Source: Dehalococcoidales bacterium
GTDB lineage: Bacteria > Chloroflexota > Dehalococcoidia > Dehalococcoidales > BS750m-G39
Assembly: GCA_016783245.1 (NCBI GenBank)
Contig: JADHWY010000003.1
Span: 1 to 46,396 of the forward strand
Length of the DNA: 46,396 nt
Reading direction: 5' to 3'
Position 1 is the stretch's first letter. The number at the start of each line of letters is the position of its first letter. The notes beneath the pieces were generated by a model. That model was given only the letters and a program-made list of their open reading frames with translations. It was not told the origin of the DNA and did no database searches. This document shows positions 29 to 46,396 of this stretch, piece by piece. The position numbers and the translations under genes are program-made.

Positions 29-895
29 ATGAGAGAATTTGAATACCTTCGGGCGAATACATTGAAGGAGGCGTGTTCTCTGCTCTCCGAGTATAAGGAG
101 GAAGCCAAAATACTTGCCGGTGGCCAATCTTTACTCACCCTTCTTAAGATGGATATGTTAAGGCCTTCCTACCTAATTGACATCAAGTTTATCCCTGAGC
201 TGAACTATATGGACTTCGATGAGAAAGAGGGTTTGAAGATGGGTGCTTTGACCACCCACCGCGCTGTGGAAAAATCGCCACTGCTCAAAGAAAAATTTCC
301 GGTTCTCCCGGAGACAGAACTGGTCGTGGCCTCAGTTCAAACCCGAAACTGGGGTACTATTGGCGGTACCCTTGTCCATGCTGACCCGATAGGAGATATA
401 GCACCAACGTTAATCGTGTTGGATTCAAAGGCAAAGTTCACCAGTGTAAACGGAGAGAGAACCATATCTCTTACGGAGCTTTTCGTCGACTTCTTCGCGA
501 CCGTTATTGAAGAAGATGAGATACTCTGTGAGATACAGATACCAACCCTACCGGCTCATACCGGCGTTGCCTATCAAAAGTTTAGCACCATCGAAGCCGG
601 CATAAAGATTGCCGGAGCAGCCTCACTGATAAGCCTAGAGGACGGGATATGCAAAGATGCTAAGATAGCACTTAGCGCCGTGGCTCCGGTTCCAATAAGA
701 GCACTAAAGGCAGAGGAAATGCTGAGGGGCAAGCCGGTTGACGATAAGTTGATTGAGCAGGCAGCGCAAATAGCATCAACTGAGGCAGACCCTGTAACTG
801 ATATGCATGCCACCGATGAATACAGAGGAGAATTAGTGAAAGTTCTAGTGCGGCGAGCAACGAAAACGGCCTTAGAAAGAGCTAAGACAACCTAG
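29..895 (+). CDS. Xanthine dehydrogenase family FAD-binding (medium) subunit, CoxM/CutM-like
   Basis: 288 aa; LAGGQSL and RNWGTIGG FAD-binding motifs; RBS GAGGAG; first of an M-S-L gene trio. Confidence 0.93.
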   Translation: MREFEYLRANTLKEACSLLSEYKEEAKILAGGQSLLTLLKMDMLRPSYLIDIKFIPELNYMDFDEKEGLKMGALTTHRAVEKSPLLKEKFPVLPETELVVASVQTRNWGTIGGTLVHADPIGDIAPTLIVLDSKAKFTSVNGERTISLTELFVDFFATVIEEDEILCEIQIPTLPAHTGVAYQKFSTIEAGIKIAGAASLISLEDGICKDAKIALSAVAPVPIRALKAEEMLRGKPVDDKLIEQAAQIASTEADPVTDMHATDEYRGELVKVLVRRATKTALERAKTT

Positions 896-919
896 CATTA
901 AACAGGAGGTAGCACTAGC

Positions 920-1417
920 ATGGAACTCGCAAAAAAACTGATAAAAGTCGCGGTAAATGGAGAATCCCGTGAGCTGTGGATAAAGCAAAACATCACTCTG
1001 CTTGATTTACTGCGTGATTATCTGGGGCTGACGGGAGCTAAGCTGGCTTGCATCAGCAATTCTTGTGGCGCCTGCACCGTCATTGTTGATGACATGGCGG
1101 TCAAGTCGTGTTCAGTACTGGCAATGCAGGTAGATGGGAAGGAAGTCTTCACTGTTGAGGGGTTGGCCAAGGATAATAAGCTTCACCCTCTCCAGCAGGC
1201 TTTCATTGAGCATGTTGCCTTTCAGTGTGGTTTCTGCACCCCGGGGAAACTCATGTCAGCCAAGGCGCTGTTGGACGAGAATCCCAACCCGACCGAGGAG
1301 GAATTGAGGAGAGATATGGAAGGTAACTTATGCCGCTGTACCGGCTATAAAAAGTATATTGAAGCTATAATGGATGTAGCACAACATCCAGAGAAATATA
1401 GCGCAAAGGAAGGTTAA
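920..1417 (+). CDS. Xanthine dehydrogenase family 2x[2Fe-2S] (small) subunit
   Basis: CxxxxCGAC...C and QCGFCTPG...CRC motifs; RBS AGGAGG. Confidence 0.95.
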   Translation: MELAKKLIKVAVNGESRELWIKQNITLLDLLRDYLGLTGAKLACISNSCGACTVIVDDMAVKSCSVLAMQVDGKEVFTVEGLAKDNKLHPLQQAFIEHVAFQCGFCTPGKLMSAKALLDENPNPTEEELRRDMEGNLCRCTGYKKYIEAIMDVAQHPEKYSAKEG

Positions 1418-1419
1418 AA

Positions 1420-3786
1420 ATGGCAGATTATCGTGTTGTCGGTAAAGGGATACCACGAAAGGACAGCATAGAAAAGATTACCGGGCAGGCGAAGTATACT
1501 TTCGATATAGTACTGCCTGAGATGTTGCATGCCAAAATCCTTCGCAGTCTGCATGCCCATGCCAAGATTGTAAACATCGATACCAGTGAGGCAGAGAAGC
1601 TACCTGGAGTCAAGGCAGTAATCACGGGGAAGGATACATGGGGGATGAGATTCGGTTTCGTTGATACCCCGCGTTACCCCTGTGAGCAGCCCGTCATAGC
1701 TGAAGACAAGGTGCGTTTTATCGGTGAGTCGGTAGCAGCGGTAGCTGCTGTTGATGAGAACACGGCTAACGAGGCTTTAGACCTGATTGAAATAGAGTAT
1801 GAACCTATTCCTGCAGTGTTTGACCCTGAAGAGGCAATGAAGGAAGGTGCGCCTCAAATCCACGGGGAACAAATCCCAGCACCGGGCAGGAAGTGTGCCT
1901 GGCAGGATTGGGGGGTGGCTAGGGTAGCACGCTCCTATAATCCGGTAAACAACATCGGTGCTACAGTTAATTTAAGCTACGGTGATAGTGAAAAGGGATT
2001 TGCTGAAGCAGAATATATTAGGGAGGATACTTGGGTTGTTCCTCGGACAAGTCATGCCGCAATGGAACCTCACGGTGCAGTAGCCAGTTACAATCCTCTT
2101 ACCGGGTATCTGGATGTCTGGCTAAGCCACATGGGCTATGAGCTTAAGCGGTATTGGATATCTAAGACTTTAGGAATACCAATAAGTAAGATAAGGGTTC
2201 ATAAAACCTTTATCGGTGGTGCCTTCGGCGGCAAGGCTCAGGTATTTGACCATGAGATAATAGCTTCCTTTCTCTCACGCAAGACCGGTAAACCAGTAAA
2301 ACTAATCCTCACTAGGGATGAGGTGTTTACTTCTACCAATAATAGTATCGCCTTAAAGATTAATGTCAAGAAAGGCGTTAAGAAAGACGGAACCATAGTG
2401 GGGCAGCATGTGAAACTAATCAGTGATATGGGGGCATATCGAGGTAGTGTTCCGGTATGCCTGTTTCTCTGTCATTCCATGCGCGATGCCATATATAACA
2501 TACCTAACCTGACTCATGAGGGTGTGGGAGCCTACACTAATAAGTCAACAACTATGGCTAAGCGAGGGCATGGGTCACAGCAGATGACTACTGCCATTGA
2601 GTCCCAGATGGACTGGATAGCTGAAGACTTGGGGCTGGACCCAGTGGAGTTCAGGTTGAAAAACCTGAGGCAGAAAGGCGATGTTCTTCCCAACAGGGAT
2701 ACGCTGAATAGTTACGGTCTTCCTGATTGTATCAAGAAGATAGTTGAGGCTTCAAACTGGAAGGAAAAGAGAGGGAAGTTGGGCCCTGGCCGTGGCATAG
2801 GCTTAGCGGTGAGTGCCATGTTCAACGGTTCTGGATACTGGCCATTCACTGCTGGCTCTATAGTGAGGATGAACCACGATGGAACCGTTACCCTTTACAT
2901 GGGTCAGGCGGAGTTTGGCCAAGGGCCGACTACGACGACATGCCAGCTAGTTGCCGAAGAGCTAGGACTGAACGTAGAGGATGTAAATCTCGTTGATGGC
3001 GATTCCGAACTCTGCCCACTCGACTACAGCAACTTCCTTAGCGGCGGTATGTTTGTCAGCTGCAAAGCTGGCTTGGTTGCAGCCCAAGATTTGAGGCAGC
3101 AAATACTGAAGGTTGCCGCTGAGATGCTGGAAGAAGATGTTGAGGACCTGGAGACTATGAATCGTCGTGTCTACATCAAGACAGACCCTGAAGAGGGTGT
3201 AGCTTTTGATGAGATACTTAGATATAGCATCCAGAAGCATGCTGGAGATCTTCTTATGGGGAAAGGATTCTGCAAGCCGGTGCCGGAGATAGAGTTCTAC
3301 CCCAGCCTGTCAAAAGGGTCGGGTAGATGGACAGATGCTTACAGTTTCACCGCCTCCATCGCTGAGGTAAGTGTAGATGCTGAGACAGGAAGGACAAAGG
3401 TAGACCATATATGGATAGGCGATGACTGCGGCCGCGAAATAAACACTGCAATATGTGAAGGTCAACTCCAGAGCCAGGCAGTTATGGGAATGGGAGATGC
3501 GCTATTTGAGGAGGTCATGTTTTCCGAGGGGCGAACGATTAATGCTAACTTTGTCGATTACGAAATCCCACGGGCTTTTGATATTCCTGAGATAACAACA
3601 ATTGATGCTTCTGACCCTGACCCTAATGGACCCTTCGGCGCCAAAGAGATTGGAGAGTGCGCTCGTGCAGCAGTGATTGGGTCTATAGTCAATGCTGTCT
3701 ATGATGCAACAAAGGTCAAGATTACGAGTCTCCCCCTACATCCAGAGAAGATTTTCCGAGGGTTAGAGGAGAAGGCAAAGTCGTGA
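1420..3786 (+). CDS. Xanthine dehydrogenase family molybdopterin-binding (large) subunit, 4-hydroxybenzoyl-CoA reductase alpha-like
   Basis: 788 aa; GGAFGGK, RGHG, GQG and GAKEIGE motifs; no AYxCSFR CO-dehydrogenase motif. Confidence 0.9.
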   Translation: MADYRVVGKGIPRKDSIEKITGQAKYTFDIVLPEMLHAKILRSLHAHAKIVNIDTSEAEKLPGVKAVITGKDTWGMRFGFVDTPRYPCEQPVIAEDKVRFIGESVAAVAAVDENTANEALDLIEIEYEPIPAVFDPEEAMKEGAPQIHGEQIPAPGRKCAWQDWGVARVARSYNPVNNIGATVNLSYGDSEKGFAEAEYIREDTWVVPRTSHAAMEPHGAVASYNPLTGYLDVWLSHMGYELKRYWISKTLGIPISKIRVHKTFIGGAFGGKAQVFDHEIIASFLSRKTGKPVKLILTRDEVFTSTNNSIALKINVKKGVKKDGTIVGQHVKLISDMGAYRGSVPVCLFLCHSMRDAIYNIPNLTHEGVGAYTNKSTTMAKRGHGSQQMTTAIESQMDWIAEDLGLDPVEFRLKNLRQKGDVLPNRDTLNSYGLPDCIKKIVEASNWKEKRGKLGPGRGIGLAVSAMFNGSGYWPFTAGSIVRMNHDGTVTLYMGQAEFGQGPTTTTCQLVAEELGLNVEDVNLVDGDSELCPLDYSNFLSGGMFVSCKAGLVAAQDLRQQILKVAAEMLEEDVEDLETMNRRVYIKTDPEEGVAFDEILRYSIQKHAGDLLMGKGFCKPVPEIEFYPSLSKGSGRWTDAYSFTASIAEVSVDAETGRTKVDHIWIGDDCGREINTAICEGQLQSQAVMGMGDALFEEVMFSEGRTINANFVDYEIPRAFDIPEITTIDASDPDPNGPFGAKEIGECARAAVIGSIVNAVYDATKVKITSLPLHPEKIFRGLEEKAKS

Positions 3787-3876: not shown

Positions 3877-5268
3877 TCATCTGCCGATAGCCCTGACGAT
3901 TTCCCCATATCTAACTAGACCTGCCAGACCAGTAATCGCCCTCTCGGGAAGGGGATAAGTAGGAATACCGCTATCCTCAAGTGCATTTATCTCAGCATAA
4001 GCTGCTCCACCGGGGGAATCAAGACACACTGCTATCGGCTTTTCCTGGTATCTGGTTATGTCAATCACTGCCCTCATCAGCTCTATATTTGAGCCGTAGA
4101 AGACAGCGGCTACGGCTACCACATCAACACCGTCATCGTCCAAAACAACCCTCAGCATTTCCCGACAGGCATCAAATTCGTTTAATTTCCACGCCAGGTC
4201 AACCGGGTTATCCACAGCATTAAGTGGCGATACTAGCTGCCTAAGCCTGCGCCTTGTCGTTGGTGAAAACTGAGCCAGCCTCAAGCCCAATTGCTGACAT
4301 TTATCAGCCATAATTATTCCCGGACCAGCCTGAGCCGAGAAAATGGCTACCCGGTTACCGACTGATGGTGGTTGAAAGGTCAGCGCCTTGACTATGTCAA
4401 CCAAATCAGTCATATCGCCAACAGTAATTATACCAGCTTGAGTAAAAGCGGCTTTATAGAACTCGTATTTGCCAGCTAAGGCACCGGTGTGCGATAAAGT
4501 AGCCTTATCTATACCCTCACTCCCACCCCCCTTATAGGCTACAATCGGCTTTTGTTTCACCACCTGCCTGGCAGCATTCATAAGTAGTCGGGGTTGTTCT
4601 AAACCTTCCACATATAAAACTATTACCCTGGTCTCATTATCCTGACCCAAGTAGGTTACCACCTCATCAAAATCAAGGTTGCACCTGTTGCCCAACCCCA
4701 TAGCTTTACTAATACCCACATTGTGGTTGTTCAAAGCATGGACTATGTAAACACACATTCCCCCACTTTGAGCAGCTACCCCCACACTGCCAGCCTTAGT
4801 TAAACTGGCAGTTTGCTGAAATGAGGCATTAAGGCCAATCGTGGAATTAACAAATCCCACAGTATTTGGCCCTATAATCTTCATCCCACCTCTATCAGCT
4901 ATATCCCTAAGCTGAGCCTGCAAATCTGAACCAATCTCCGTGCCCACCTCCTTGAAACCACCGCTAATCAGAATAGCCCCCTTTATTCCCTTAGCAATAC
5001 ACTCCTCTATGGTAGATAAAGTGAGCTCGGCGGGAATAGCAACGATAGCTAAATCAACCTCCCCTGGAATAGCTGTAACCGAAGGATATACTCTTAGCCC
5101 AAAAAGCTCAGATAGGCCGGGGTTAACTGGATAAACCCTGCCCCCAAACCCACCTTCGAGCAGGTTGCCGACACACATGAAACCCACCTTCTCTGGATTA
5201 GCTGAGGCACCGACTACAGCAATGCTTCTGGGAGAGAAAATATGGTCTAACTGCTCCACCAAATCCAT
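3877..5268 (-). CDS. ADP-forming acetate/acyl-CoA ligase alpha subunit (CoA-binding)
   Basis: PRSIAVVGAS, IIGPN, QSGG, phospho-His motif SHTGALAG and NPVD; no ATP-grasp domain. Confidence 0.88.
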   Translation of the reverse strand: MDLVEQLDHIFSPRSIAVVGASANPEKVGFMCVGNLLEGGFGGRVYPVNPGLSELFGLRVYPSVTAIPGEVDLAIVAIPAELTLSTIEECIAKGIKGAILISGGFKEVGTEIGSDLQAQLRDIADRGGMKIIGPNTVGFVNSTIGLNASFQQTASLTKAGSVGVAAQSGGMCVYIVHALNNHNVGISKAMGLGNRCNLDFDEVVTYLGQDNETRVIVLYVEGLEQPRLLMNAARQVVKQKPIVAYKGGGSEGIDKATLSHTGALAGKYEFYKAAFTQAGIITVGDMTDLVDIVKALTFQPPSVGNRVAIFSAQAGPGIIMADKCQQLGLRLAQFSPTTRRRLRQLVSPLNAVDNPVDLAWKLNEFDACREMLRVVLDDDGVDVVAVAAVFYGSNIELMRAVIDITRYQEKPIAVCLDSPGGAAYAEINALEDSGIPTYPLPERAITGLAGLVRYGEIVRAIGR

Positions 5269-5270
5269 AA

Positions 5271-6899
5271 CTAATTGACCTCCAAAATCCAGTGAGGCTC
5301 AACCGAGACTTCATTTAGCATAGCGAAACCTAGAGGACTTAGGTCATACCCCTTAATATAGGGCTTGACCAGAAAATAATTCTGTCCAAACCACAAGGGT
5401 AGACAGGCAGCATCCTCAATTAGAAGTTGCTCAGCCTGTTGATATAGTGCCAAGCTCAGGTTATTATCTTGCTCCACCCCTGTCCTCTCCAGCAGAGCAT
5501 CTACCTCAGGGTTGCTATACTCGCTGTAGTTATTATCAGCACCAGTATGAAACAAAACATCCAAAAAATCCTGCGGATGAGGGTAATCGGCAATCCAACC
5601 CATATAGAACATCTCATCCTTCTCCTGCTTAAGGTGATAAAGGAATCTCTGTGGCTCTAATTGCCTGACCTCAACCTCCACCCCCAGGTTGCTTCGCCAC
5701 TCCTGAATGATAGCTTCCAGCTCCTGCGATATTAATCCTCCCCAGCCTATAGTGGTAATGGCGATAGGCGGCAATTGGGATACGTCACCATAACTAGAAT
5801 TGGCAATCAACTCCCTTGCCCCATCTATATCATAGTCCAGCCCAAGAAGCCCCTCATTATAACCAGGCATGCCAGGCGGTAGGATGCCATCTGCCTGCTG
5901 CATCATGCCCTTGAATACCAAGGAAACTAACTTATCCTTATCAATCGCCTGAGAGAAGGCACGGCGGATATTGACATCGTCAAACGGTGGCTTGGTAGTA
6001 TTAAAACCAATGTAGAAAAAGCTCAACTCAGGCGTTATCCTTAAATCTGTGTAAAAGGGACCTGCTTCATCGGTAGCCTTCTCAATATAATCACGGTAAA
6101 CGCTGGTGATATCAATCTTGCCCGTCTCATACATATTCATAGGCACGCCGCCCCACAACTGAAAGACAACAAGATTGACCTTGGCCACCTCTCCATAGTA
6201 AAGCTCGTTCTTCTCTAAAACAAGCAAGCTATTTTCATCCCATTGCTTAAGCTTAAACGGACCGGTGCCATTGGGACTACGCCACCATTCCCCACCCGAC
6301 TCCACATCAGCTCTATCCACCACAAAGGCGGTGGGATAGGTTAACTTGGACAAGAAATAAGATTTGGGGGCATCTATAGTTACCTGAAGAGTATAATCAT
6401 CAATAACCCTGACACCACTAATCTCCTTACTTTCACCAGATAATACTTCCTTCACCCCGACAATATCGCCCAGATAGGTGGCTGCTGTCTGAGACCCAGT
6501 TCCAGGGTCACAGGCCCGCTCCCAGGAATATTTAAAATCCTCAGCTTTAACCTGCCTGCCATTATGAAACATAACATCCTGCCGCAGATAGAAGGTATAG
6601 GTCCTGCCATTATCGCTGACCTGCCACGACTGGGCTATATCAGGCGTTGGCTTCAGGTTATCATCAAGGCTAACCAGCCCGCCAAATAGCTGCGTTACAT
6701 ATTCATGGGAAGTCATCTCACCGGAGACCGCCGGGTCAAGGGTTAGCGGGTCAATACCATACAGGCTAAGAGTATTTTCTCCAGCACCAGGGATTGGCGC
6801 TTCTTCCTGCCCAAACTGGCAGCTAACACCGGGATAGTAGAATACCAGCAGACTACATACCAGTACTACTGAAAGAAAGACATATAAGATTCTTTTCAT
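5271..6899 (-). CDS. Peptide/nickel ABC transporter substrate-binding protein (family 5)
   Basis: Signal peptide with possible lipobox (GVSC); TLDP, YTFYLR, GTGPF, PFDDVNIRRA and WIADYP motifs. Confidence 0.92.
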   Translation of the reverse strand: MKRILYVFLSVVLVCSLLVFYYPGVSCQFGQEEAPIPGAGENTLSLYGIDPLTLDPAVSGEMTSHEYVTQLFGGLVSLDDNLKPTPDIAQSWQVSDNGRTYTFYLRQDVMFHNGRQVKAEDFKYSWERACDPGTGSQTAATYLGDIVGVKEVLSGESKEISGVRVIDDYTLQVTIDAPKSYFLSKLTYPTAFVVDRADVESGGEWWRSPNGTGPFKLKQWDENSLLVLEKNELYYGEVAKVNLVVFQLWGGVPMNMYETGKIDITSVYRDYIEKATDEAGPFYTDLRITPELSFFYIGFNTTKPPFDDVNIRRAFSQAIDKDKLVSLVFKGMMQQADGILPPGMPGYNEGLLGLDYDIDGARELIANSSYGDVSQLPPIAITTIGWGGLISQELEAIIQEWRSNLGVEVEVRQLEPQRFLYHLKQEKDEMFYMGWIADYPHPQDFLDVLFHTGADNNYSEYSNPEVDALLERTGVEQDNNLSLALYQQAEQLLIEDAACLPLWFGQNYFLVKPYIKGYDLSPLGFAMLNEVSVEPHWILEVN

Positions 6900-8070: not shown

Positions 8071-9222
8071 TCAATAGCCAGTAGTCGCTAGTGCAGGGCA
8101 CATCCATTCCTCCGTAGTCGATTGGTATTGCTGAGCGACATAATCCCGCCATAAACTATCCAGACCATCCATATCAAAGCCATAAACCCTTTCCAGGGCT
8201 GCATCGTAACTACTACCCTCCCTGAAGGTATTCAGCAGCTCGAGCATCTTACCCTGTCCATAATTGGCGATAAGAAATTCAACCAGACTATAGCTTTGAG
8301 CATAGGAAAGGTAAGCCTCCCCAGCATAAGCGGAGAAGGGGCTAGATAGGCTCTGCACTGAGATAAGGCTATCCTCAGCTATTGCCCTACTAAGATGACT
8401 GGTAAGTTCTAGGCCCAGCACCCCTTCATTATGCATAGCTAGACCTTCATCAAGCCAGGTAGGCAGGCTATTATAAGGATTAAGGGTCATCTGGTGGATA
8501 ACCAGATGTGTCAGCTCATGGGCGATTGCCCTCTTGCCCCAGTTGATATTACTAGGAGCTATGCCAATAGCTATAATGCCATGCCTGGTAAAGGCTACCC
8601 CACCAGTCCACTCCTGAGGATAAATCATAGCCCCCTTTAAATCCTTGGCGTCGGCGTAGACATAGAGCTTGGCAGATTTCCCTAGATAAGCGCCAGTATC
8701 CTCAGCCAGCCTCTCCAATGCCTCTTGAGCCGCTACCATCAGCTCCCGCGCAAAAGAATCATCCCCTTTATACCAAAAAATAGTTACCTTCCCTTCGGTA
8801 AAACCGCGCCATGAATAGCGAATGTCATCAAGCCGGACTTGAGCTGGAGCAGTTTCCACTCTGTTGCCATTGGTATCCTCTACTTTCCACCAGTATTCCA
8901 TGCTGGAGCCGGGTGGTAGCCCACCAATTTTCACCATTTCCAAAGTCCAGCCGACATCAACAGTAGCACTGGGCATAAATTCAATATAGGCCTCACTGGT
9001 TACCTGAGCAAAGCTTGCTCGGTCAACGGTATAGCAGAGGCGAATATCAATGATATTGACATTGCTCTGGGCTGACAGATTGAAGTTGAGCCTGGAAGGG
9101 AACTCTGCCTGAGCCGAGCTATCCAGTATGGTTAACTCACCTTGGGCTTGAACCAGACCGGGACTCGATATAGCTAATAAGAAGCAAAAAAATAAAGTTA
9201 ACAGGATGGTTTTCTTAATCAT
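8071..9222 (-). CDS. Secreted peptidase MA-family metallohydrolase
   Basis: Signal peptide; HELTH zinc motif followed by WLDEGLA and YAQS. Confidence 0.85.
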   Translation of the reverse strand: MIKKTILLTLFFCFLLAISSPGLVQAQGELTILDSSAQAEFPSRLNFNLSAQSNVNIIDIRLCYTVDRASFAQVTSEAYIEFMPSATVDVGWTLEMVKIGGLPPGSSMEYWWKVEDTNGNRVETAPAQVRLDDIRYSWRGFTEGKVTIFWYKGDDSFARELMVAAQEALERLAEDTGAYLGKSAKLYVYADAKDLKGAMIYPQEWTGGVAFTRHGIIAIGIAPSNINWGKRAIAHELTHLVIHQMTLNPYNSLPTWLDEGLAMHNEGVLGLELTSHLSRAIAEDSLISVQSLSSPFSAYAGEAYLSYAQSYSLVEFLIANYGQGKMLELLNTFREGSSYDAALERVYGFDMDGLDSLWRDYVAQQYQSTTEEWMCPALATTGY

Positions 9223-29189: not shown

Positions 29190-30179
29190 ATGATTGGAAG
29201 CCTAATATGGCAAATAAGCTCAATATCTGCTATTATGAATCAAAACTCTCCAGTAATACATTACCATGAGGAACTGAGATTGACTGAACTGAGTTACGTC
29301 AGGACATCCAAAGATTTAGTCACTCCTATTGATGTGACTCAATCTGGTTTTCTTCAACAGGCCCTCCGCAAGACAAAAGAAGCTAGTCCCTATGTCGACC
29401 GTGCGAAGCAGCTTCTTGATAAGTTGCAGATGGCTCTCGAACCTCAAGAGCTGATAGATATCGAGGAAATTCGTGATGATCTTATTACGGCTGCTGGTTT
29501 CTCAGATAAAGCAACCAGCTATTTCTCCTCCTCCGAACTTGAAAATGCACTGTTAGAGGTATTAGAACAGATTGAGAAGAAAGCTGGCCCCGACTGGCGA
29601 ACAGAGATTATATATCGTTTCCTACTCACTAGGGGAGACACTCTTGGTGGTGTTATGCGTAATATAATGGGTGCAGAGGCCAAAGCCAAGTTTACGGAAG
29701 TCATTTTGAAAGCGCTACAAAACAAGGATATATTGCCCAGTATCATCCACTCGAAGGCTAATATCGATAAGGTGCAACAGATCTCATGGCCTGACCGAAT
29801 ATTGCTTTTTGATAAAAAGCCAAAGCTCATTGGTGGCAAGAACGTTGATGTAATCCTACTGCGTCAATCTGAAAGCCACGTGTCAGTGACTGCACTATTG
29901 GATAGAAAGGATAACTATCTAGTTTGTGGGGAGGTTAAAGGTGGCATAGACCCGGCAGGTGCTGACGAACACTGGAAAACTGCATATGGAGCGCTAGCCA
30001 GAATACGTGAGAAATTCCAAGAAGGGCAACCTAAACTATTCTTTGTTGGTGCAGCCATTGAAAACTCTATGGCTGATGAAATCTTCTCGCAGCTGCAATC
30101 CGGGCTATTAAATCACGCTGCAAATCTTAATGTATCTCAACAAGTTTCTGATTTAGCTGCGTGGTTAGTCTCTTTTTGA
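29190..30179 (+). CDS. Type II restriction endonuclease, AvaI/BsoBI family (predicted site CYCGRG)
   Basis: Family signature GEVKGGIDPAGADEHWKTA and YRFLLTRGDTLGG; true start may be TTG 29280 after GAGGA. Confidence 0.88.
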   Translation: MIGSLIWQISSISAIMNQNSPVIHYHEELRLTELSYVRTSKDLVTPIDVTQSGFLQQALRKTKEASPYVDRAKQLLDKLQMALEPQELIDIEEIRDDLITAAGFSDKATSYFSSSELENALLEVLEQIEKKAGPDWRTEIIYRFLLTRGDTLGGVMRNIMGAEAKAKFTEVILKALQNKDILPSIIHSKANIDKVQQISWPDRILLFDKKPKLIGGKNVDVILLRQSESHVSVTALLDRKDNYLVCGEVKGGIDPAGADEHWKTAYGALARIREKFQEGQPKLFFVGAAIENSMADEIFSQLQSGLLNHAANLNVSQQVSDLAAWLVSF

Positions 30180-31588
30180 CGACTCCAGACGTAAACACAC
30201 TTCCGTAGTTCCTCGCGCCCGTGTATCCGCATTTGCTGACTGCTGTTACCTTTCCCAATTGGCAGAGCCCATATTACCTGAGTGTCAAAGCCTGCTCGCT
30301 GCGCGATCTCCGATAATATCAAATCAACAGGGATATGTATTCCCTGGTACCTAACGTTGTCATTTACCATAACAAAGCGTGCCCCTGGTTTCAACAACCT
30401 GGCACATTCAAAAATCACGACTGTGAGCTCTTTAAAGTAATTGCGCACCATACGTGGTATTCCGTTATTATTCAACAATCCTTCATTACGACATAGGTCT
30501 AGATACTTGAGTATGAGTCCTAGCAATTCTTGAGACTCAAAAGCCTTGGTAGAATTACTTAGGCGAACTAGGTCAGTTTTTTTGCCCAAGTCCGCTTTCT
30601 CGCGATTCTCCACAGTACAACTTAACATAGCTTGACGGAGAGCTCGGATTTCCTCTTCGCCGATTCCCATCATGGCAAGTTCAAGGGCATAGGTGCGAGT
30701 GTAATCGTATCGGTTACAGTATGGTGGCGACGTAATAATCCCATCGAAGGACTCGTTCTCCAAAGTTGGCAGTATGTCTAGGCAGGAACCCTTAAGCAGT
30801 TGCACTTCACCCGATCTCTGTTCTCCAAATAGATCTGCAAATCTCAGTTGGTCTCCATATATATCTCCCGCAATCTGGTCAAGTTTTGCACATATTGCCG
30901 GGGTAAAGGACTTTATTGTTCCCTTGTGAAACGGCTTCTTTCCTACTCTCCTTCCGGAGCGGTAGTCCCATCGTAGATATTGCCCGTCTTTTCTCGTATA
31001 ACTGACATCCTCAAGTATGCACAAAGTGGCGAAGAATAGAATGCGCCTGAGGCTCTCTTCGTTTACCCTTTCTACCTCATACAAGTAACGACCCAGCTCC
31101 ACTTCTGTCTGCAATGGGAAGGCTCCCCTAGTGATGCGAATATGGGGGAAGTTTTTGCTCTCCCCTGGTCTCTGCCATATGAGGCTTTCCCTGAATCGTC
31201 GAATTCTCTCAGCCATCTGGCTGGCCTCTGCCATTCGCAGTATCTGTCGTACTTCAATAATCTCTGCACTACTTGGCAGCAATTCAATACCCACAGAATC
31301 AACACCAAGTTCGCTTGCGGTGAAAAGGGCAGCACCACAGCCAGCAAATGGGTCAAGAATACGGCCAGAATCTAAAGCGAATCTACGTATAACATAGCGG
31401 ACAAGGTCCGACGAGAATCCCTCCTTATATTTGTACCATCTATGACCATTCTTGGTTTTATTGGCCTGGAAACTTACTAGAGTACGGTCCAAATCATAGT
31501 TAACTCGCAGTTTCTCTCCAAATTTGGCGTGAAGTCTATCGTCGGCTGCTTTTATTTCTTCTAGAATCTTCGTATGGTCACTAGTCAT
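30137..31588 (-). CDS. N4-cytosine DNA methyltransferase, cognate of the AvaI/BsoBI-like REase
   Basis: SAM motif LDPFAGCG precedes catalytic TSPPY (alpha order); 483 aa. Confidence 0.9.
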   Translation of the reverse strand: MTSDHTKILEEIKAADDRLHAKFGEKLRVNYDLDRTLVSFQANKTKNGHRWYKYKEGFSSDLVRYVIRRFALDSGRILDPFAGCGAALFTASELGVDSVGIELLPSSAEIIEVRQILRMAEASQMAERIRRFRESLIWQRPGESKNFPHIRITRGAFPLQTEVELGRYLYEVERVNEESLRRILFFATLCILEDVSYTRKDGQYLRWDYRSGRRVGKKPFHKGTIKSFTPAICAKLDQIAGDIYGDQLRFADLFGEQRSGEVQLLKGSCLDILPTLENESFDGIITSPPYCNRYDYTRTYALELAMMGIGEEEIRALRQAMLSCTVENREKADLGKKTDLVRLSNSTKAFESQELLGLILKYLDLCRNEGLLNNNGIPRMVRNYFKELTVVIFECARLLKPGARFVMVNDNVRYQGIHIPVDLILSEIAQRAGFDTQVIWALPIGKGNSSQQMRIHGREELRKCVYVWSRQKETNHAAKSETC

Positions 31589-41495: not shown

Positions 41496-44400
41496 TTGAA
41501 AGAATTAACCATCAGTTCCGACGCACCAGGGGAAAGACTCTTTATGCTCGGCAATGAGGCAATAGCCAGAGGGGTTATTGAGGCTGGGGCTCAGGTGGTG
41601 GCTGCCTACCCTGGTACCCCCTCCAGCGAAATAATGGAAACCCTAGCCGGAGTAGCCAAGAAACTTGACATGTATGTCGAGTGGTCAACCAACGAGAAGG
41701 TAGCCTTTGAAGTAGCTCTAGCCGCCTCACTCTCCGGGTTAAGAGCTATGGCGTCAATGAAGCATGTTGGGGTAAATGTAGCCCATGACCCATTAATGTC
41801 AGCTAGCTATATAGGCGTAATCGGCGGCTTGGTTCTACTCTCTGCAGATGACCCCTGGGCATGGAGCTCACAGGTGGAGCAGGATAACCGGTTTATTGCC
41901 GAGCAGGGTTATATCCCCATCCTTGAGCCCTCTCATGCCGAGGAAGCCAAGAATATGGTGGCTGACGCCTTTGCCCTCTCTGAAGAATTTGGGCATCTCT
42001 TTATGGTCAGGTCAGTAACCAGGATAGGTCATGCCCGCAGCGATGTAACCCTGGGAGAGATATCAAGGGAAAAAAGGAAGGGCTTGTTTAAGAAAGACCG
42101 CTTCCGGTGGGTGCAAACCCCGACTGGCGCCAGGAAAAACCGACCACTTATGATTAAGCGGTTTGAGGAAATAAAGGAACGGGTAAATACACTCCCCTAT
42201 AACCAGCTAAAGCTAGTTAGTGGAGCCAAGCTGGGTATAATCGCCTCGGGAGTACCCTACAGTTATGCCAGGGAGGCAATAAACTGGCTGGGGCTTGACG
42301 ACAAGGTTTCGGTGCTCAAGATTGGAACGCCCCACCCTCTTCCCGAGGAACTGGTAACCAAGCTACTAAGTTCGGTGAGCGAGGTGCTGGTGGTAGAAGA
42401 ACTAGAGCCATTTGTGGAGACTCACGTTAAAGCCTTTGCCCAGGAAGCGAGTATCACGGTCAAAATCCATGGCAAGGATTTGCTTCCGGTAATAGGCGAG
42501 CTATCTACCAGCAAGGTTACCGAGGCTATTGCCAAGTTAACCAACTCCAAACTCCCGGTTAATTTTAGGGAGATAGAAAAACTCTGGGAAGAGACAGCTC
42601 CGCTATTGCCACTACGACCACCAGCCCTGTGCGCCGGTTGCCCGCACCGAGCCTCTTTCTATGCCATTACGATAGCAGCAAGAAAAGTGGCTAGAGACTA
42701 TGGTAAAGATGTACTGCCTATCTATCCAGGTGATATTGGCTGCTATACCCTGGGCTACATCCCTCCGCTAGAAGCTGAGGATGTCACTATCTGTATGGGA
42801 GCCAGCTTTGGTTTGGCCAATGGTTTTGCCCATGCCCAAGATGCACCAGTAATAGCCCACCTGGGTGACTCAACCTTCTTCCATGCCGGCATACCACCAC
42901 TAATAAATGCTGTCTACAATAAGGCAAACATAACTATGGTAGTGCTGGATAACGGGACTACGGCTATGACTGGTTTCCAACCTGATGCCGGCTCAGGCAA
43001 AACTGCTACTGGCGATGAGGCCATACAGCTAAAACCGGAAGAGATAGCCAAAGCATGTGGCGTAAAGTTCATCAAGGTTGTAGACCCCTTTGACCTGAAA
43101 ACAACCACCGATACCATAGAAAAGGCAATAAGGTTTGATGGACCCTCACTGATAGTTTCCCGAAGGCTCTGCGCCCGGATAGCAGAAAGGGAAAAGCGAA
43201 AGCTGGGAGAGAAAGTAGTCCTTTATTATATAGACCAAGAGAAATGCGTTAAATCTAAGAACAAAATAATGCCCTGTGCTGCTACTTGCCCCGCCGGTAA
43301 TGATATACCGGGTTTCACTAATCTGGTCAAGCAGGGAAAAATCAAGGAGGGGCTAGAGTTAATCAAGCAGACTAACCCACTGCCTGCTGTCCTAGGAAGA
43401 GTTTGCTATCATCCCTGTGAGACAGAATGTAACCGTGCTCAACATGATGAGGCAATCGCCATCCATAAGATAGAAAGACTCCTGGGAGACTATGAAATTA
43501 CCCTCCCCAGCGAAGAGGAGGTAAAAGCTAAGCGAGAGGATAAGGTAGCTATTATTGGCTCTGGACCAGCCGGCCTCAGTTGCGGTTACTACTTAGCCAA
43601 GATAGGATATCCGGTGACTATCTTCGAAGCTCTATCCGTGCCCGGTGGAATGTTGGCAGTGGGCATTCCTGAATATCGGCTACCCAAGGACGTGCTGAGG
43701 ACAGAGATTAAGAGAATTGAAGACCTGGGTGTTGAAATCCGCCTTAACACCCCCGTTGGCTCCGATGACGACCTCCTGCAGCAAGGATATAAAGCAGCTT
43801 TCATCGCTGTAGGCGCTCATAAAAGCATGAAGCTGGGTGCGCCAGGGGAGGAGCAGGAAGGAGTCGTTTCAGCCTTGAGCTTTCTCCGCGAGGTTAATCT
43901 AGGTAAGCAAGTAAGTGTCGGAGAGAAGACTGTCATTATTGGTGGCGGTAACGTGGCTATAGATGCCGCCCGCGTCGCTCTCAGACAAGGGGCAAAACAG
44001 GTATCTATCATCTACCGTCGCTCCAGAGCTGAAATGCCGGCTAGCGATGAGGAAATCGAGGCTGCCGAGGAAGAGGGTGTTAATGTTACCTACCTGGCTG
44101 CTCCGACCAAGGTTTTAGGTAACGGTAAAGTTAGCGGGGTAGAATGCATTCGGATGAAGCTAGGCGAGCCAGATGCCAGTGGGCGCCGGCGCCCCATCCC
44201 AATCAAGGGCTCCGAGTTTACTGTTGATGTTGACACAGTAATATCGGCTATTGGCCAGGCACCGGAACTCCCCTTTACTGATAACCAGCTTAAAGTTTCC
44301 CCCCAGGGCACCTTGATAGCTGATGCCAGCACTCTCGCCACTGGCAAACCGGGTATCTTCGCCGGTGGCGACATGGTTACTGGCCCAGCAACAGTGGCTG

Positions 44401-44798
44401 ATGCCATTGGTGCTGGTAGAAAAGCAGCAAACTCTATTGATAGATACCTGAGGGGAGAGGCTCTTGCCATAACCGAGGAGAAAATCCCCACTATCAGCTA
44501 CGAGGAGCTCTCTTTGGCTTGTATCGAGCCAGTACCGAGGGCAAAAGCTAGCAAACTACCTGTAGCTAAGCGGCTGGAGGGGTTCGCCGAGGTTGAAAGC
44601 GGTCTCAGCCAAGAGATAGCTACTGCTGAGGCTAAGCGCTGCCTTAGCTGTGGTGTGGGCAGTGAAAAGTGTATTATGCTGCTAGGCTGTCCAGCAATAT
44701 GGAGAGACGACGGCAAAACCATGGTCGATACCTCCATGTGTGATGGTTGTGCAATTTGTGCCCAAATTTGCCCCTACAAAGCTATAGTGCAGGAGTGA
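41496..44798 (+). CDS. iorA: Indolepyruvate:ferredoxin oxidoreductase alpha subunit with inserted GltD/NfnB-like FAD/NAD(P)H oxidoreductase module
   Basis: GNEAIARG, YPGTP, NEKVA, CAGCP, GDIGCY, TPP motif GDSTFF...LDN; then PCAATCP, GSGPAG, GGGNVA, YRR, AGGD; C-terminal ferredoxin Cys motifs. Confidence 0.92.
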   Translation: MKELTISSDAPGERLFMLGNEAIARGVIEAGAQVVAAYPGTPSSEIMETLAGVAKKLDMYVEWSTNEKVAFEVALAASLSGLRAMASMKHVGVNVAHDPLMSASYIGVIGGLVLLSADDPWAWSSQVEQDNRFIAEQGYIPILEPSHAEEAKNMVADAFALSEEFGHLFMVRSVTRIGHARSDVTLGEISREKRKGLFKKDRFRWVQTPTGARKNRPLMIKRFEEIKERVNTLPYNQLKLVSGAKLGIIASGVPYSYAREAINWLGLDDKVSVLKIGTPHPLPEELVTKLLSSVSEVLVVEELEPFVETHVKAFAQEASITVKIHGKDLLPVIGELSTSKVTEAIAKLTNSKLPVNFREIEKLWEETAPLLPLRPPALCAGCPHRASFYAITIAARKVARDYGKDVLPIYPGDIGCYTLGYIPPLEAEDVTICMGASFGLANGFAHAQDAPVIAHLGDSTFFHAGIPPLINAVYNKANITMVVLDNGTTAMTGFQPDAGSGKTATGDEAIQLKPEEIAKACGVKFIKVVDPFDLKTTTDTIEKAIRFDGPSLIVSRRLCARIAEREKRKLGEKVVLYYIDQEKCVKSKNKIMPCAATCPAGNDIPGFTNLVKQGKIKEGLELIKQTNPLPAVLGRVCYHPCETECNRAQHDEAIAIHKIERLLGDYEITLPSEEEVKAKREDKVAIIGSGPAGLSCGYYLAKIGYPVTIFEALSVPGGMLAVGIPEYRLPKDVLRTEIKRIEDLGVEIRLNTPVGSDDDLLQQGYKAAFIAVGAHKSMKLGAPGEEQEGVVSALSFLREVNLGKQVSVGEKTVIIGGGNVAIDAARVALRQGAKQVSIIYRRSRAEMPASDEEIEAAEEEGVNVTYLAAPTKVLGNGKVSGVECIRMKLGEPDASGRRRPIPIKGSEFTVDVDTVISAIGQAPELPFTDNQLKVSPQGTLIADASTLATGKPGIFAGGDMVTGPATVADAIGAGRKAANSIDRYLRGEALAITEEKIPTISYEELSLACIEPVPRAKASKLPVAKRLEGFAEVESGLSQEIATAEAKRCLSCGVGSEKCIMLLGCPAIWRDDGKTMVDTSMCDGCAICAQICPYKAIVQE

Positions 44799-44803
44799 AA
44801 GAA

Positions 44804-45409
44804 ATGATAAAAGAATTCAATGTACTAATCTCTGGAGTTGGTGGACAGGGTGTAATCTTGATGTCAGAGCTTCTGGGGAACGCAGCAGTTAAAGATGGAC
44901 TGCGGGTTAGGGGCTCTGAAGTGCTGGGGATGGCAGTTAGAGGCGGTTCGGTATTCAGCAGTATCAGAATGGGAAGCGATGTATACGGGCCACTACCTCC
45001 CCTGGGAAAGTGCGACATCATAGTTGCACTGGAGCCATCAGAAGCACTACAAAACATTACCTTTCTGTCCAAGTCTAGCGTGGTCATACTCAACACCGCT
45101 ATAGTAATTCCATTCACCGTTTCCCTAGGACAAAGTAAGTACCCTAGCCTGGAAGCAATGCTGGAAAAACTAGGTAAGGCCTCAAGCAAAATAATTAAAC
45201 TGGATGCCTCCCAACTCGCCAGAGAGGCAGGAAACCTGCTAACAACTAATATTGTGATGCTGGGAGCATTATTCGGCACCAATCAGCTTCCGATAAAAAT
45301 AGAAACGGTGAAGGAATCCATCGAGGACCGCTTCCCAGCCAAGGTAATCCCGGTTAACTTTAAAGCCTTTGACCTCGGTTATCAGGCATGCCAAGAGGCA
45401 CTTAAATAA
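44804..45409 (+). CDS. iorB: Indolepyruvate oxidoreductase beta subunit
   Basis: GVGGQG, EVLGMAVRGGSV, NIVMLGA; ATG 44804 downstream of AGGAG. Confidence 0.93.
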   Translation: MIKEFNVLISGVGGQGVILMSELLGNAAVKDGLRVRGSEVLGMAVRGGSVFSSIRMGSDVYGPLPPLGKCDIIVALEPSEALQNITFLSKSSVVILNTAIVIPFTVSLGQSKYPSLEAMLEKLGKASSKIIKLDASQLAREAGNLLTTNIVMLGALFGTNQLPIKIETVKESIEDRFPAKVIPVNFKAFDLGYQACQEALK

Positions 45410-45493: not shown

Positions 45494-46396
45494 CTACTGC
45501 AAAAGCTCCATAATATGCATTACCTTTACTGGCAGCTTGTCCCGTATAGTACTGTCAATCAACTGAATTTCACATCCCGGACAGCTACTAACTACAATAT
45601 CAGCCCCGGTTGACTCAATTGCTTCCACCTTCTTATCGGCAATCTTCTTGGACAGGTCATAGTAATAAATGCTAAACGTGCCTGCCATACCACAGCACCT
45701 GTCGGCGTTAGGCATCTCAACATATTCTACACCAGGTATTGACTTTATAATCTGCCGCGGCTGGTCTTTTATCCCCAGATGTCGGACAAGATGACACGGG
45801 TCGTGCCAGGTAACCTTCTTACCCTTAACCTCGGACGCAGGCTGGTAAGCTGACGACGGTAGCTTCAATACATCAACCAGAAACTCAGAAATGTCCTTTA
45901 CCCTTTCGCCGAACTTGGTATAAGCCTCTTTCCGCTCTGAGGTATCAGCCAAAAACTTCACATAGTCCTTCAACGCCGAGGTACAGGTAGCGCAGTCTGA
46001 AACGATGTAATCTACCCCCCCAAAGGCTTTTACATTAGTGTCAGCTAATCTTCTCCCTGTATCAAAATCACCAGCCCCCAGAAACACCGGTGCTCCGCAG
46101 CAGCCTTGTTCCTCGGGCACCACTACCTCTACGCCGTTCCTGGTCAGGAAATCGACTATATGCTTACCCAGTTCAGGAAAGACGAAATCAGTCATGCAGC
46201 CAGTAAAATAGCCCACCTTCATCCTGGTGGCAACACCAGCCGGGGGCTTATTTACTACCGGGACTATCTGCCGTAGAAACTTGGGGGCAATTTCAGGTAT
46301 CTGTCTCCCCTTACCCAGAGCCGACAGGAACATGGATAAATGCCTGATTGTGCCCTCGGTCTTGGGCAGGAAAATCCCCTGAAACCAGGAGGCAAA
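45494..46396 (-). CDS. CCG-domain Fe-S oxidoreductase (GlcF/HdrD-like), 5' truncated by the window edge
   Basis: YFTGC...CCG...CATC and HDPCH...CCG...CPGC. Confidence 0.9.
   Translation of the reverse strand, partial: FASWFQGIFLPKTEGTIRHLSMFLSALGKGRQIPEIAPKFLRQIVPVVNKPPAGVATRMKVGYFTGCMTDFVFPELGKHIVDFLTRNGVEVVVPEEQGCCGAPVFLGAGDFDTGRRLADTNVKAFGGVDYIVSDCATCTSALKDYVKFLADTSERKEAYTKFGERVKDISEFLVDVLKLPSSAYQPASEVKGKKVTWHDPCHLVRHLGIKDQPRQIIKSIPGVEYVEMPNADRCCGMAGTFSIYYYDLSKKIADKKVEAIESTGADIVVSSCPGCEIQLIDSTIRDKLPVKVMHIMELLQ

Follow-up and report, generated by a model that had tools for sequence, protein, structure and literature searches.

The window analyzed here, a stretch of 46,396 nucleotides from a Dehalococcoidales bacterium (assembly GCA_016783245.1, contig JADHWY010000003.1), encodes an alpha subunit of indolepyruvate ferredoxin oxidoreductase (IOR), termed IorA, whose ferredoxin domain is split by a flavoprotein module of the NfnB/GltD type. 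The fused iorA gene is real and conserved, and its architecture is confirmed. Together with the beta subunit IorB encoded directly downstream, the fused protein is probably an arylpyruvate:NADP+ oxidoreductase, in which an integral NADP(H):Fe-S flavoprotein module would lengthen the wire of iron-sulfur (Fe-S) clusters. The gene and its parts are located in the window as follows.

41496..44798 (+), whole fused iorA gene, one open frame of 1100 residues plus stop codon, TTG start
41496..43247 (+), IorA core, residues 1-584, with POR_N, the thiamine pyrophosphate (TPP)-binding domain, the proximal-cluster Cys residues and Cys584
43248..44669 (+), inserted GltD/NfnB-type module, circularly permuted, residues 585-1058, delimited by PDB alignments, Foldseek and the gap in an unfused orthologue
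43254..43256 (+), codon of Ser587, at the second-Cys position of the ferredoxin CxxC...C motif
43275..43475 (+), predicted module Fe-S ligands on the N-terminal side (Cys594, Cys598, Cys637, Cys641, Cys645, Glu660), from the alignment
43542..44417 (+), predicted FAD and NADP(H) Rossmann domains (Pyr_redox_2, residues 683-974) with GSGPAG, Arg728, GGGNVA, YRRS and AGGD
44628..44651 (+), EAKRCLSC, residues 1045-1052, putative permuted pair Cys1049 and Cys1052 of the FAD-distal cluster, aligning with NfnB 15-43
44670..44795 (+), resumed IorA ferredoxin domain, residues 1059-1100, with Cys1059, Cys1065-Pro and Cys1082/1085/1088/1092-Pro, the second TIGR03336 stretch
44804..45409 (+), iorB (IOR beta subunit), TIGR03334 220.9 bits against a cut-off of 205.8, Pfam POR 3e-42

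In the fused protein, Pfam places POR_N at residues 26-190, TPP_enzyme_C at 413-554, Fer4_20 at 582-667 (2.8e-22), Pyr_redox_2 at 683-974 (E 7.8e-33) and Fer4 at 1077-1097. The NCBIfam equivalog TIGR03336 (IOR_alpha), whose cut-off is 650.9, scores 763 bits over two stretches, profile positions 2-570 at 41535-43295 and 536-595 at 44592-44786, and NF009410 ('NAD(P)-binding protein') covers residues 579-1097 with 543.8 bits (cut-off 516), both halves of the protein thus passing curated cut-offs within one frame. Position 43224, from which an earlier note on this DNA had reported the interruption, corresponds to residue 577, and the end at 44798 takes in the stop codon. The anatomy described there, namely an IorA core, an NfnB/GltD-type insert, a resumed ferredoxin and a normal iorB, is found as described with all its motifs in place, and the insert, estimated at about 475 residues, measures 474 (residues 585-1058) against the unfused IorA of the related genome G001. 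The motif positions are YYIDQEKC 577-584, PCAATCP 593-599, GRVCYHPCETEC 634-645, GSGPAG 688-693, GGGNVA 816-821, YRRS 840-843, AGGD 956-959, EAKRCLSC 1045-1052, GSEKC 1055-1059, GCPAI 1064-1068 and CDGCAICAQICP 1082-1093. Cys584 is the first Cys of the ferredoxin motif, and the TPP-binding motif GDSTFFH spans residues 457-463. Cys379, Cys382, Cys416 and Cys559 are presumed to be the ligands of the proximal [4Fe-4S] cluster and, like all 18 predicted Cys ligands, are invariant in an alignment of 40 fused proteins.

The same set of Pfam domains is carried by all 120 relatives listed in a homology search, at 53-97% identity; the combination of IorA with Fer4_20 and Pyr_redox_2, for which the earlier note had proposed a domain-architecture search, is therefore common to every one of them. 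The listed relatives are drawn from NCBI, JGI, ENA and Logan assemblies and measure 1078-1127 residues at 98-100% coverage, except for one protein cut by a contig end (991 residues, 89%). Where named, they are called 'indolepyruvate ferredoxin oxidoreductase subunit alpha' and belong to metagenome-assembled genomes of Dehalococcoidales, Dehalococcoidia or Chloroflexota. Near-identical DNA is present in 16 sequencing runs (at least half of the sampled words), and four runs were mapped as contigs onto positions 42900-45100. One 2419-nt contig of run X5 covers 43102-45100 and hence spans both junctions, contigs of run X8 over 42900-44252 and 44229-45100 bridge one junction each, and contig pieces of run X12 bridge each junction as well. 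These runs stem from three studies, none of them flagged as a possible source of the DNA of the source assembly, so that the coverage across the junctions which the earlier note had suggested examining is provided independently. In genome G019 the same gene (at least 1095 residues) lies beside a divergent uvrA, syntenic with the window. Although the source is a 71-contig, 78%-complete assembly of metagenome type, the probability of an assembly chimera or a decaying gene is practically nil, as the frame is open over 1100 residues with all cluster ligands conserved, the architecture is shared by 120 of 120 listed relatives from several sources, and both the junction-bridging contigs and the synteny with G019 at uvrA reject a chimera.

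The module aligns end to end with 9bov_A (residues 103-568), 8oh5_C (103-568) and 9n5u_A (104-505 and 550-595). For Thermotoga maritima NfnB (4ylf_B), residues 45-462 correspond to residues 592-988 of the fused protein and residues 15-43 to 1025-1053; the E values for the four structures range from 1e-100 to 1e-123. In NfnB the stretch 15-43, which ends with RCLQC, directly precedes PCxxxCP, whereas its counterpart in fused IorA follows the flavin domains, a short match that would be weak if taken alone. The position of the RCLxC pair indicates that the module is circularly permuted, and it is, judged by these alignments, a permuted NfnB/GltD unit starting with PCxxxCP and ending with RCLxC. 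EAKRCLSC, which had been taken for the plain tail of a GltD-like sequence, is indeed present but corresponds in the alignment to the Cys pair at the N-terminus of the NfnB fold, here in permuted position. Both termini of the module are located at the FAD-distal cluster, 9 and 6 residues from the host residues Cys584 and Cys1059, respectively; with its ends near the host ferredoxin ligands, the splice site seems to suit electron transfer.

According to the alignment, seven Cys residues (594, 598, 637, 641, 645, 1049 and 1052) and Glu660 are available for two [4Fe-4S] clusters of the module, and Cys1049 and Cys1052 are invariant among the 40 aligned sequences. The assignment of ligands to the individual clusters presumably follows DPD/NfnB. 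GSGPAG, GGGNVA and YRRS align with NfnB, StnC and Thermococcus sibiricus NfnA, and a YRR[ST]..EMPA stretch is common to the module and four NADPH-binding homologues, so that the dinucleotide motifs predict binding of FAD and NADPH. The NADPH-type motif pointed out in the earlier note is borne out by its alignment with NfnB, StnC and T. sibiricus NfnA, NADPH-binding proteins according to the accessible part of PMC10482914. An AlphaFold2 model of the fused protein, calculated from 40 sequences, has a mean predicted local distance difference test score of 81.7 and a predicted template modeling score (pTM) of 0.54; searched with Foldseek, it retrieves 9bov_A, 8oh5_C and 9n5u_A as best matches, followed by NfnB/NfnL and GltD (target-normalized TM-scores 0.76-0.79).

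The closest structural precedent is the GltD-like domain of the Stn/NfnABC enzymes (8oh5_C, 9n5u_A, 9bov_A), where the same permuted PCxxxCP-RCLxC cassette resides inside a larger Fe-S protein at 33-40% identity to the IorA module (Foldseek, E about 1e-104 to 1e-123). As far as the available portions of the two reports go (PMC10482914, PMC12018979), this domain, with its FAD, its two [4Fe-4S] clusters and a site for NADPH, delivers electrons into a linear chain of clusters and does not bifurcate; it comprises residues 102-565 of StnC (PMC10482914), and the equivalent domain of the T. sibiricus enzyme is described there as an inserted NfnL-like domain (PMC12018979). The hosts differ, the IorA module being placed in a 2-oxoacid:ferredoxin oxidoreductase (OFOR) and that of Stn/NfnABC in a NuoG-like or FdhF-like protein. 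In fused IorA the electrons likely flow the opposite way (towards NADP+), and Glu660 is found where StnC has Lys170 at the FAD-proximal cluster. NfnB and NfnL (4ylf_B, 5jca_L) are 40-44% identical to the module, with target-normalized TM-scores of 0.78-0.79, and share with it the Glu ligand, the Arg near FAD and the NADPH motif. Unlike NfnB, the module carries RCLxC after the flavin domains, has no NfnA partner nearby and sits covalently inside IorA.

Compared with canonical IorAB (TIGR03336/TIGR03334), the TPP core, the proximal-cluster Cys residues, the ferredoxin tail and IorB are retained, whereas the canonical ferredoxin is contiguous with eight Cys and that of the fused protein is split by 474 residues within the first Cys motif, seven of the eight Cys remaining. 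The first description of indolepyruvate:ferredoxin oxidoreductase is reportedly that of Mai and Adams (1994, as cited in PMC5109826), for the enzyme of Pyrococcus furiosus. The unfused G001 IorA (632 residues, 82% identical over residues 1-586) reads HIDQDKC-SEK-C-EA-C-IKLLGCPAI at the corresponding site and ends with CPYKAIVQE, followed by iorB. In fused IorA the sequence runs from YIDQEKC through the 474 inserted residues to C-IMLLGCPAI, and its tail resembles that of the G001 protein with 31 of 43 residues identical (own count).

Two types of junction are distinguished among 121 fused proteins, that is, the source protein and its 120 listed relatives. The major type (108/121) has the module between Cys1 and Cys2, with RCxxC-x-C-xx-C after the module and all ligands present. 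The minor type, to which the source protein belongs (13/121), has the module after the Cys2 position, followed by RCxxC-x6-C. In front of the minor-type module, as read by hand, C-xx-C is kept in five of the 13 proteins, which places their split between Cys2 and Cys3, one has a Cys at another spacing and seven carry Ser, Thr or Ala (the source protein with Ser587, P0003 to P0007, and P0102). The statement of the earlier note that the interrupted motif lacks its second Cys thus holds for the source protein, where Ser587 takes its place, but does not extend to the family, since the Cys is replaced in 7/13 minor-type and 0/108 major-type proteins. This distribution marks the missing second Cys as a derived feature of one small lineage.

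Cys584, Cys1059 and Cys1092 are the Cys residues left for the junction cluster in the source protein. With only three Cys, the cluster would be of the [3Fe-4S] type, or else [4Fe-4S] with one ligand other than Cys, in the source protein as well as in its nearest relatives. A CxxCxxC motif without its middle Cys is the classical [3Fe-4S] signature. Two candidates for a substitute ligand were considered. Ser587 is unlikely because relatives show Ser, Thr or Ala at this position, and the Gly of G019 at the corresponding site speaks against Cys1009.

The two junction types differ further in the non-Cys ligand of the FAD-proximal cluster. According to the available part of PMC10482914, this ligand is Glu in NfnB and a strictly conserved Lys170 in StnC; Glu660 of the fused protein aligns with both. 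Glu is present in 13 of 13 minor-type proteins, whereas the major type shows Lys in 102 and His in two of the 104 proteins that were scored (four of the 108 were unscored). Modules in other hosts carry Lys in 63 and Glu in eight of 76 scored cases. Of these eight Glu modules, one (P0275) is placed elsewhere in the module tree; the other seven are P0243, which is a cut copy of the minor type, and proteins lying near the minor type in that tree.

In the proposed mechanism, an arylpyruvate would be decarboxylated on TPP and CoA acylated. Two electrons would leave singly via the proximal [4Fe-4S] cluster (Cys379/382/416/559), enter the split ferredoxin domain and pass first to the FAD-distal module cluster (Cys1049, Cys1052, Cys594, Cys645) and then to the FAD-proximal cluster (Cys598, Cys637, Cys641, Glu660). 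FAD would collect them and reduce NADP+ by hydride transfer. The net reaction would be arylpyruvate + CoA + NADP+ -> arylacetyl-CoA + CO2 + NADPH, without free ferredoxin, so that the predicted acceptor is NADP+ instead of the ferredoxin of canonical IorAB. Substrate, cofactor preference, cluster order and direction of electron flow are all predictions from sequence.

Several observations weigh against this reading. Arylpyruvate as the likely substrate is taken from the equivalog model, and the suggested preference for NADP+ over NAD+ from motif similarity. The AlphaFold2 model has a pTM of only 0.54, and the proposed order of the clusters is tentative. The second ferredoxin cluster (Cys1065/1082/1085/1088) is complete, which makes an exit to free ferredoxin possible. 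The accessible part of PMC10482914 associates the Glu ligand with a cluster of very low potential next to a bifurcating FAD, and the non-bifurcating precedent StnC has Lys exactly where the minor type has the NfnB-type Glu. Finally, contigs of metatranscriptome run X17 cover 43419-43690 and 44406-44772 and leave parts of the gene uncovered; they are only a hint that fused iorA is expressed, and DNA carry-over is possible.

The best-surviving alternative is a dual exit, with the split ferredoxin as a branch point from which electrons would proceed either via the second cluster to free ferredoxin or via the module to NADP+; such an enzyme would also be an NADPH:ferredoxin oxidoreductase balancing both pools. 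Cys1082/1085/1088/1092-Pro together with Cys1065 are complete and invariant in the 40-sequence alignment, the tail is, as described above, largely identical to that of a ferredoxin-reducing unfused orthologue, and the presence of both forms in genomes G005 and G009 points to different roles rather than a simple replacement. Linear systems such as StnC, on the other hand, keep all clusters in one chain (PMC10482914, as far as available), and no ferredoxin docking site is apparent from the sequence. A dual exit is accordingly regarded as unlikely, though far from negligible.

A further alternative takes up the second option of the earlier note, an electron-bifurcating enzyme; here the NfnB-type FAD would carry out flavin-based bifurcation or confurcation. 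For instance, NADPH could drive a reductive carboxylation of arylacetyl-CoA that is coupled to an acceptor of high potential, or NADP+ reduction could need a second donor. In favor of this reading is the Glu ligand throughout the minor type, as in bifurcating NfnB. Arg728 corresponds to the Arg contacting the FAD N5 in NfnB, but the same Arg is present in non-bifurcating StnC and hence does not discriminate (both from the available part of PMC10482914). Fused iorA is neighbored by iorB and by two genes of the opposite strand, uvrA and one for a protein with CCG domains; no NfnA-like partner with a [2Fe-2S] cluster, a second FAD and an NAD site was found beside the gene, the rest of the 78%-complete genome not having been searched. 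In addition, a single cluster chain leaves the FAD, and the oxidation of 2-oxoacids, near -500 mV, is strong enough to reduce NADP+ without coupling. Bifurcation is for these reasons considered very unlikely, and a linear arylpyruvate:NADP+ oxidoreductase remains the preferred assignment.

The idea of reducing a pyridine nucleotide via a bound flavin instead of free ferredoxin is not new among OFORs. In the pyruvate:NADP+ oxidoreductase (PNO) of Cryptosporidium and of Euglena, the latter being the comparison drawn in the earlier note, a CPR-like domain is fused at the end. A 2-oxoglutarate:NADP+ oxidoreductase of Azoarcus evansii has, to judge from a title cited in PMC8163825, reportedly been described, and phenylglyoxylate dehydrogenase (PadE-I, NCBIfam name NF045762) has its flavoprotein as a subunit of its own. 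These enzymes use another flavin module and another attachment, and none of them is known to be an IorA with the module in its ferredoxin motif. A literature search (without supplements) found no paper on an IorA-flavoprotein fusion and no characterized enzyme of this architecture. NAD(P)-linked OFORs and inserted GltD cassettes are therefore known as such, while a cassette inside the IorA ferredoxin motif appears to be new.

2-Oxoacid:ferredoxin oxidoreductases hold a central place in the anaerobic metabolism of amino acids and carbon and are generally taken to need free ferredoxin. If the proposed function is correct, a widespread self-contained NADP+-reducing form would alter models of electron flow and NADPH supply for uncultured Dehalococcoidia, organisms with small genomes that reach high abundance in marine and subsurface sediments. 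Orthologues of about 80% identity with and without a 474-residue redox cassette, along with two junction designs differing in their ligands (Glu or Lys; three or four Cys), represent a natural experiment. Comparison of these forms would show how modular Fe-S wires are rewired and would test what makes an NfnB-type flavin bifurcate.

The distribution of fused and unfused forms was surveyed in 31 genomes of the family and order (the source genome G000 and 30 others). Nine of the 30 other genomes contain a complete unfused IorA, 69-82% identical over residues 1-585. The minor-type fused form is present in four of the 31, complete in G000 and G019 and cut at contig ends in G009 and G005, the latter two also holding the unfused form. 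A contig of an RNA run joins position 42953 to 44755 with 397 other letters between, and a DNA contig diverges right after the Cys584 codon into a motif of the unfused type. Both forms therefore coexist in the same habitats.

In a tree of IorA cores (71 rows), a single starred clade unites every fused protein with six closely related unfused IorAs, which are interleaved among them. A single clade of all 35 fused cores, a group named only after the core tree had been seen, is rejected by the approximately unbiased (AU) test (p = 0.0008, log-likelihood difference 102), which indicates that the module has been gained or lost more than once. In the module tree (120 rows) the two junction types are not sisters, with other hosts lying between them. 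One joint clade of both types is not rejected by the AU test (p = 0.171, log-likelihood difference 36.2, 64 rows), so that an independent origin of both module lineages is not demonstrated. Two separate captures are suggested by the junction position and by Glu versus Lys at the ligand site. The more far-reaching scenario that the cassette entered the CxxCxxC motif of IorA at least twice, on each side of Cys2, and was repeatedly lost, with the Glu-ligated, three-Cys lineage being a bifurcating or confurcating 2-oxoacid oxidoreductase, is quite unlikely.

The same cassette is used in further hosts, and the source genome alone contains three additional copies. One is located in an HdrA-like protein of 1120 residues (G000:C4, 517..3879, minus strand), in agreement with the earlier note, which had mentioned similar insertions in HdrL, the name of an HdrA with an inserted NfnB-like module. 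This copy has the same boundaries as in IorA and a Lys at the ligand position, and it precedes an intact Cys motif. HdrA-like copies of the cassette, about 52% identical to the IorA module and in frames of 1116-1137 residues, occur in most of 30 relatives. No paper containing both terms was found in a literature search for HdrL together with NfnB. Adjoining the HdrA-like gene is a fragment of an HdrC-like Cys-rich gene.

The second copy belongs to a 763-residue Fe-S protein (encoded within G000:C52, 85..3744, minus strand) with an N-terminal Fe-S region followed by the cassette, which ends with RCLKC. Its gene lies downstream of an acyl-CoA-ligase-like gene and directly upstream of one for a 361-residue 2-oxoacid:acceptor oxidoreductase alpha subunit, with which it may constitute a second NADP(H)-linked OFOR having its flavoprotein as a separate subunit. 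The third copy is a plain NfnB/GltD-like gene (467-residue frame).

A library-wide search with residues 575-1100 yielded 27,900 matches at E<=1e-3 and 5,519 at E<=1e-30, in hosts of 422-1504 residues. Ten matches were scanned with Pfam and comprise a dihydroorotate-dehydrogenase-like domain (two), an old-yellow-enzyme-type flavoprotein (two), a POR gamma subunit (one), a NuoF-like protein (one), IorA (one complete and one cut) and stand-alone or cut modules (two). P0253, a stand-alone protein of 546 residues, is itself an IorA-like ferredoxin domain interrupted by the module and matches what NF009410 models. P0250 (755 residues) combines an OFOR gamma-subunit domain (Pfam POR), a Glu-type cassette and a complete dicluster ferredoxin; it has the appearance of a gamma-delta OFOR subunit that carries this NADPH module, and in the module tree it belongs to the closest relatives of the source module.

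Elsewhere in the window, an ADP-forming acyl-CoA-synthetase-like gene (3877..5268, minus strand) has CoA_binding and Succ_CoA_lig domains and reaches 429.9 bits with TIGR02717, below the cut-off of 567; its product could turn arylacetyl-CoA into ATP. It is accompanied by genes for a family-5 peptide-binding protein (5271..6899, minus strand) and an MA-type peptidase (8071..9222, minus strand), and the three together are a weak fit to peptide fermentation. A homologue of RnfC above the cut-off was not found in the 78%-complete source genome, which is weak evidence at best. Convergent with iorB, a gene at 45494..46396 (minus strand) encodes two CCG Cys-rich domains (HdrD/GlcF-like) and runs off the window end; no evidence was found that links its product to the IOR system. 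Genes of a molybdoenzyme of the xanthine dehydrogenase family are located at 29..3786 (plus strand), with an FAD subunit, a 788-residue molybdopterin subunit and a 165-residue open reading frame between them. A BsoBI-type restriction endonuclease gene (Pfam 4.2e-79) is found at 29190..31588, together with a gene containing a DNA-methylase domain on the opposite strand.

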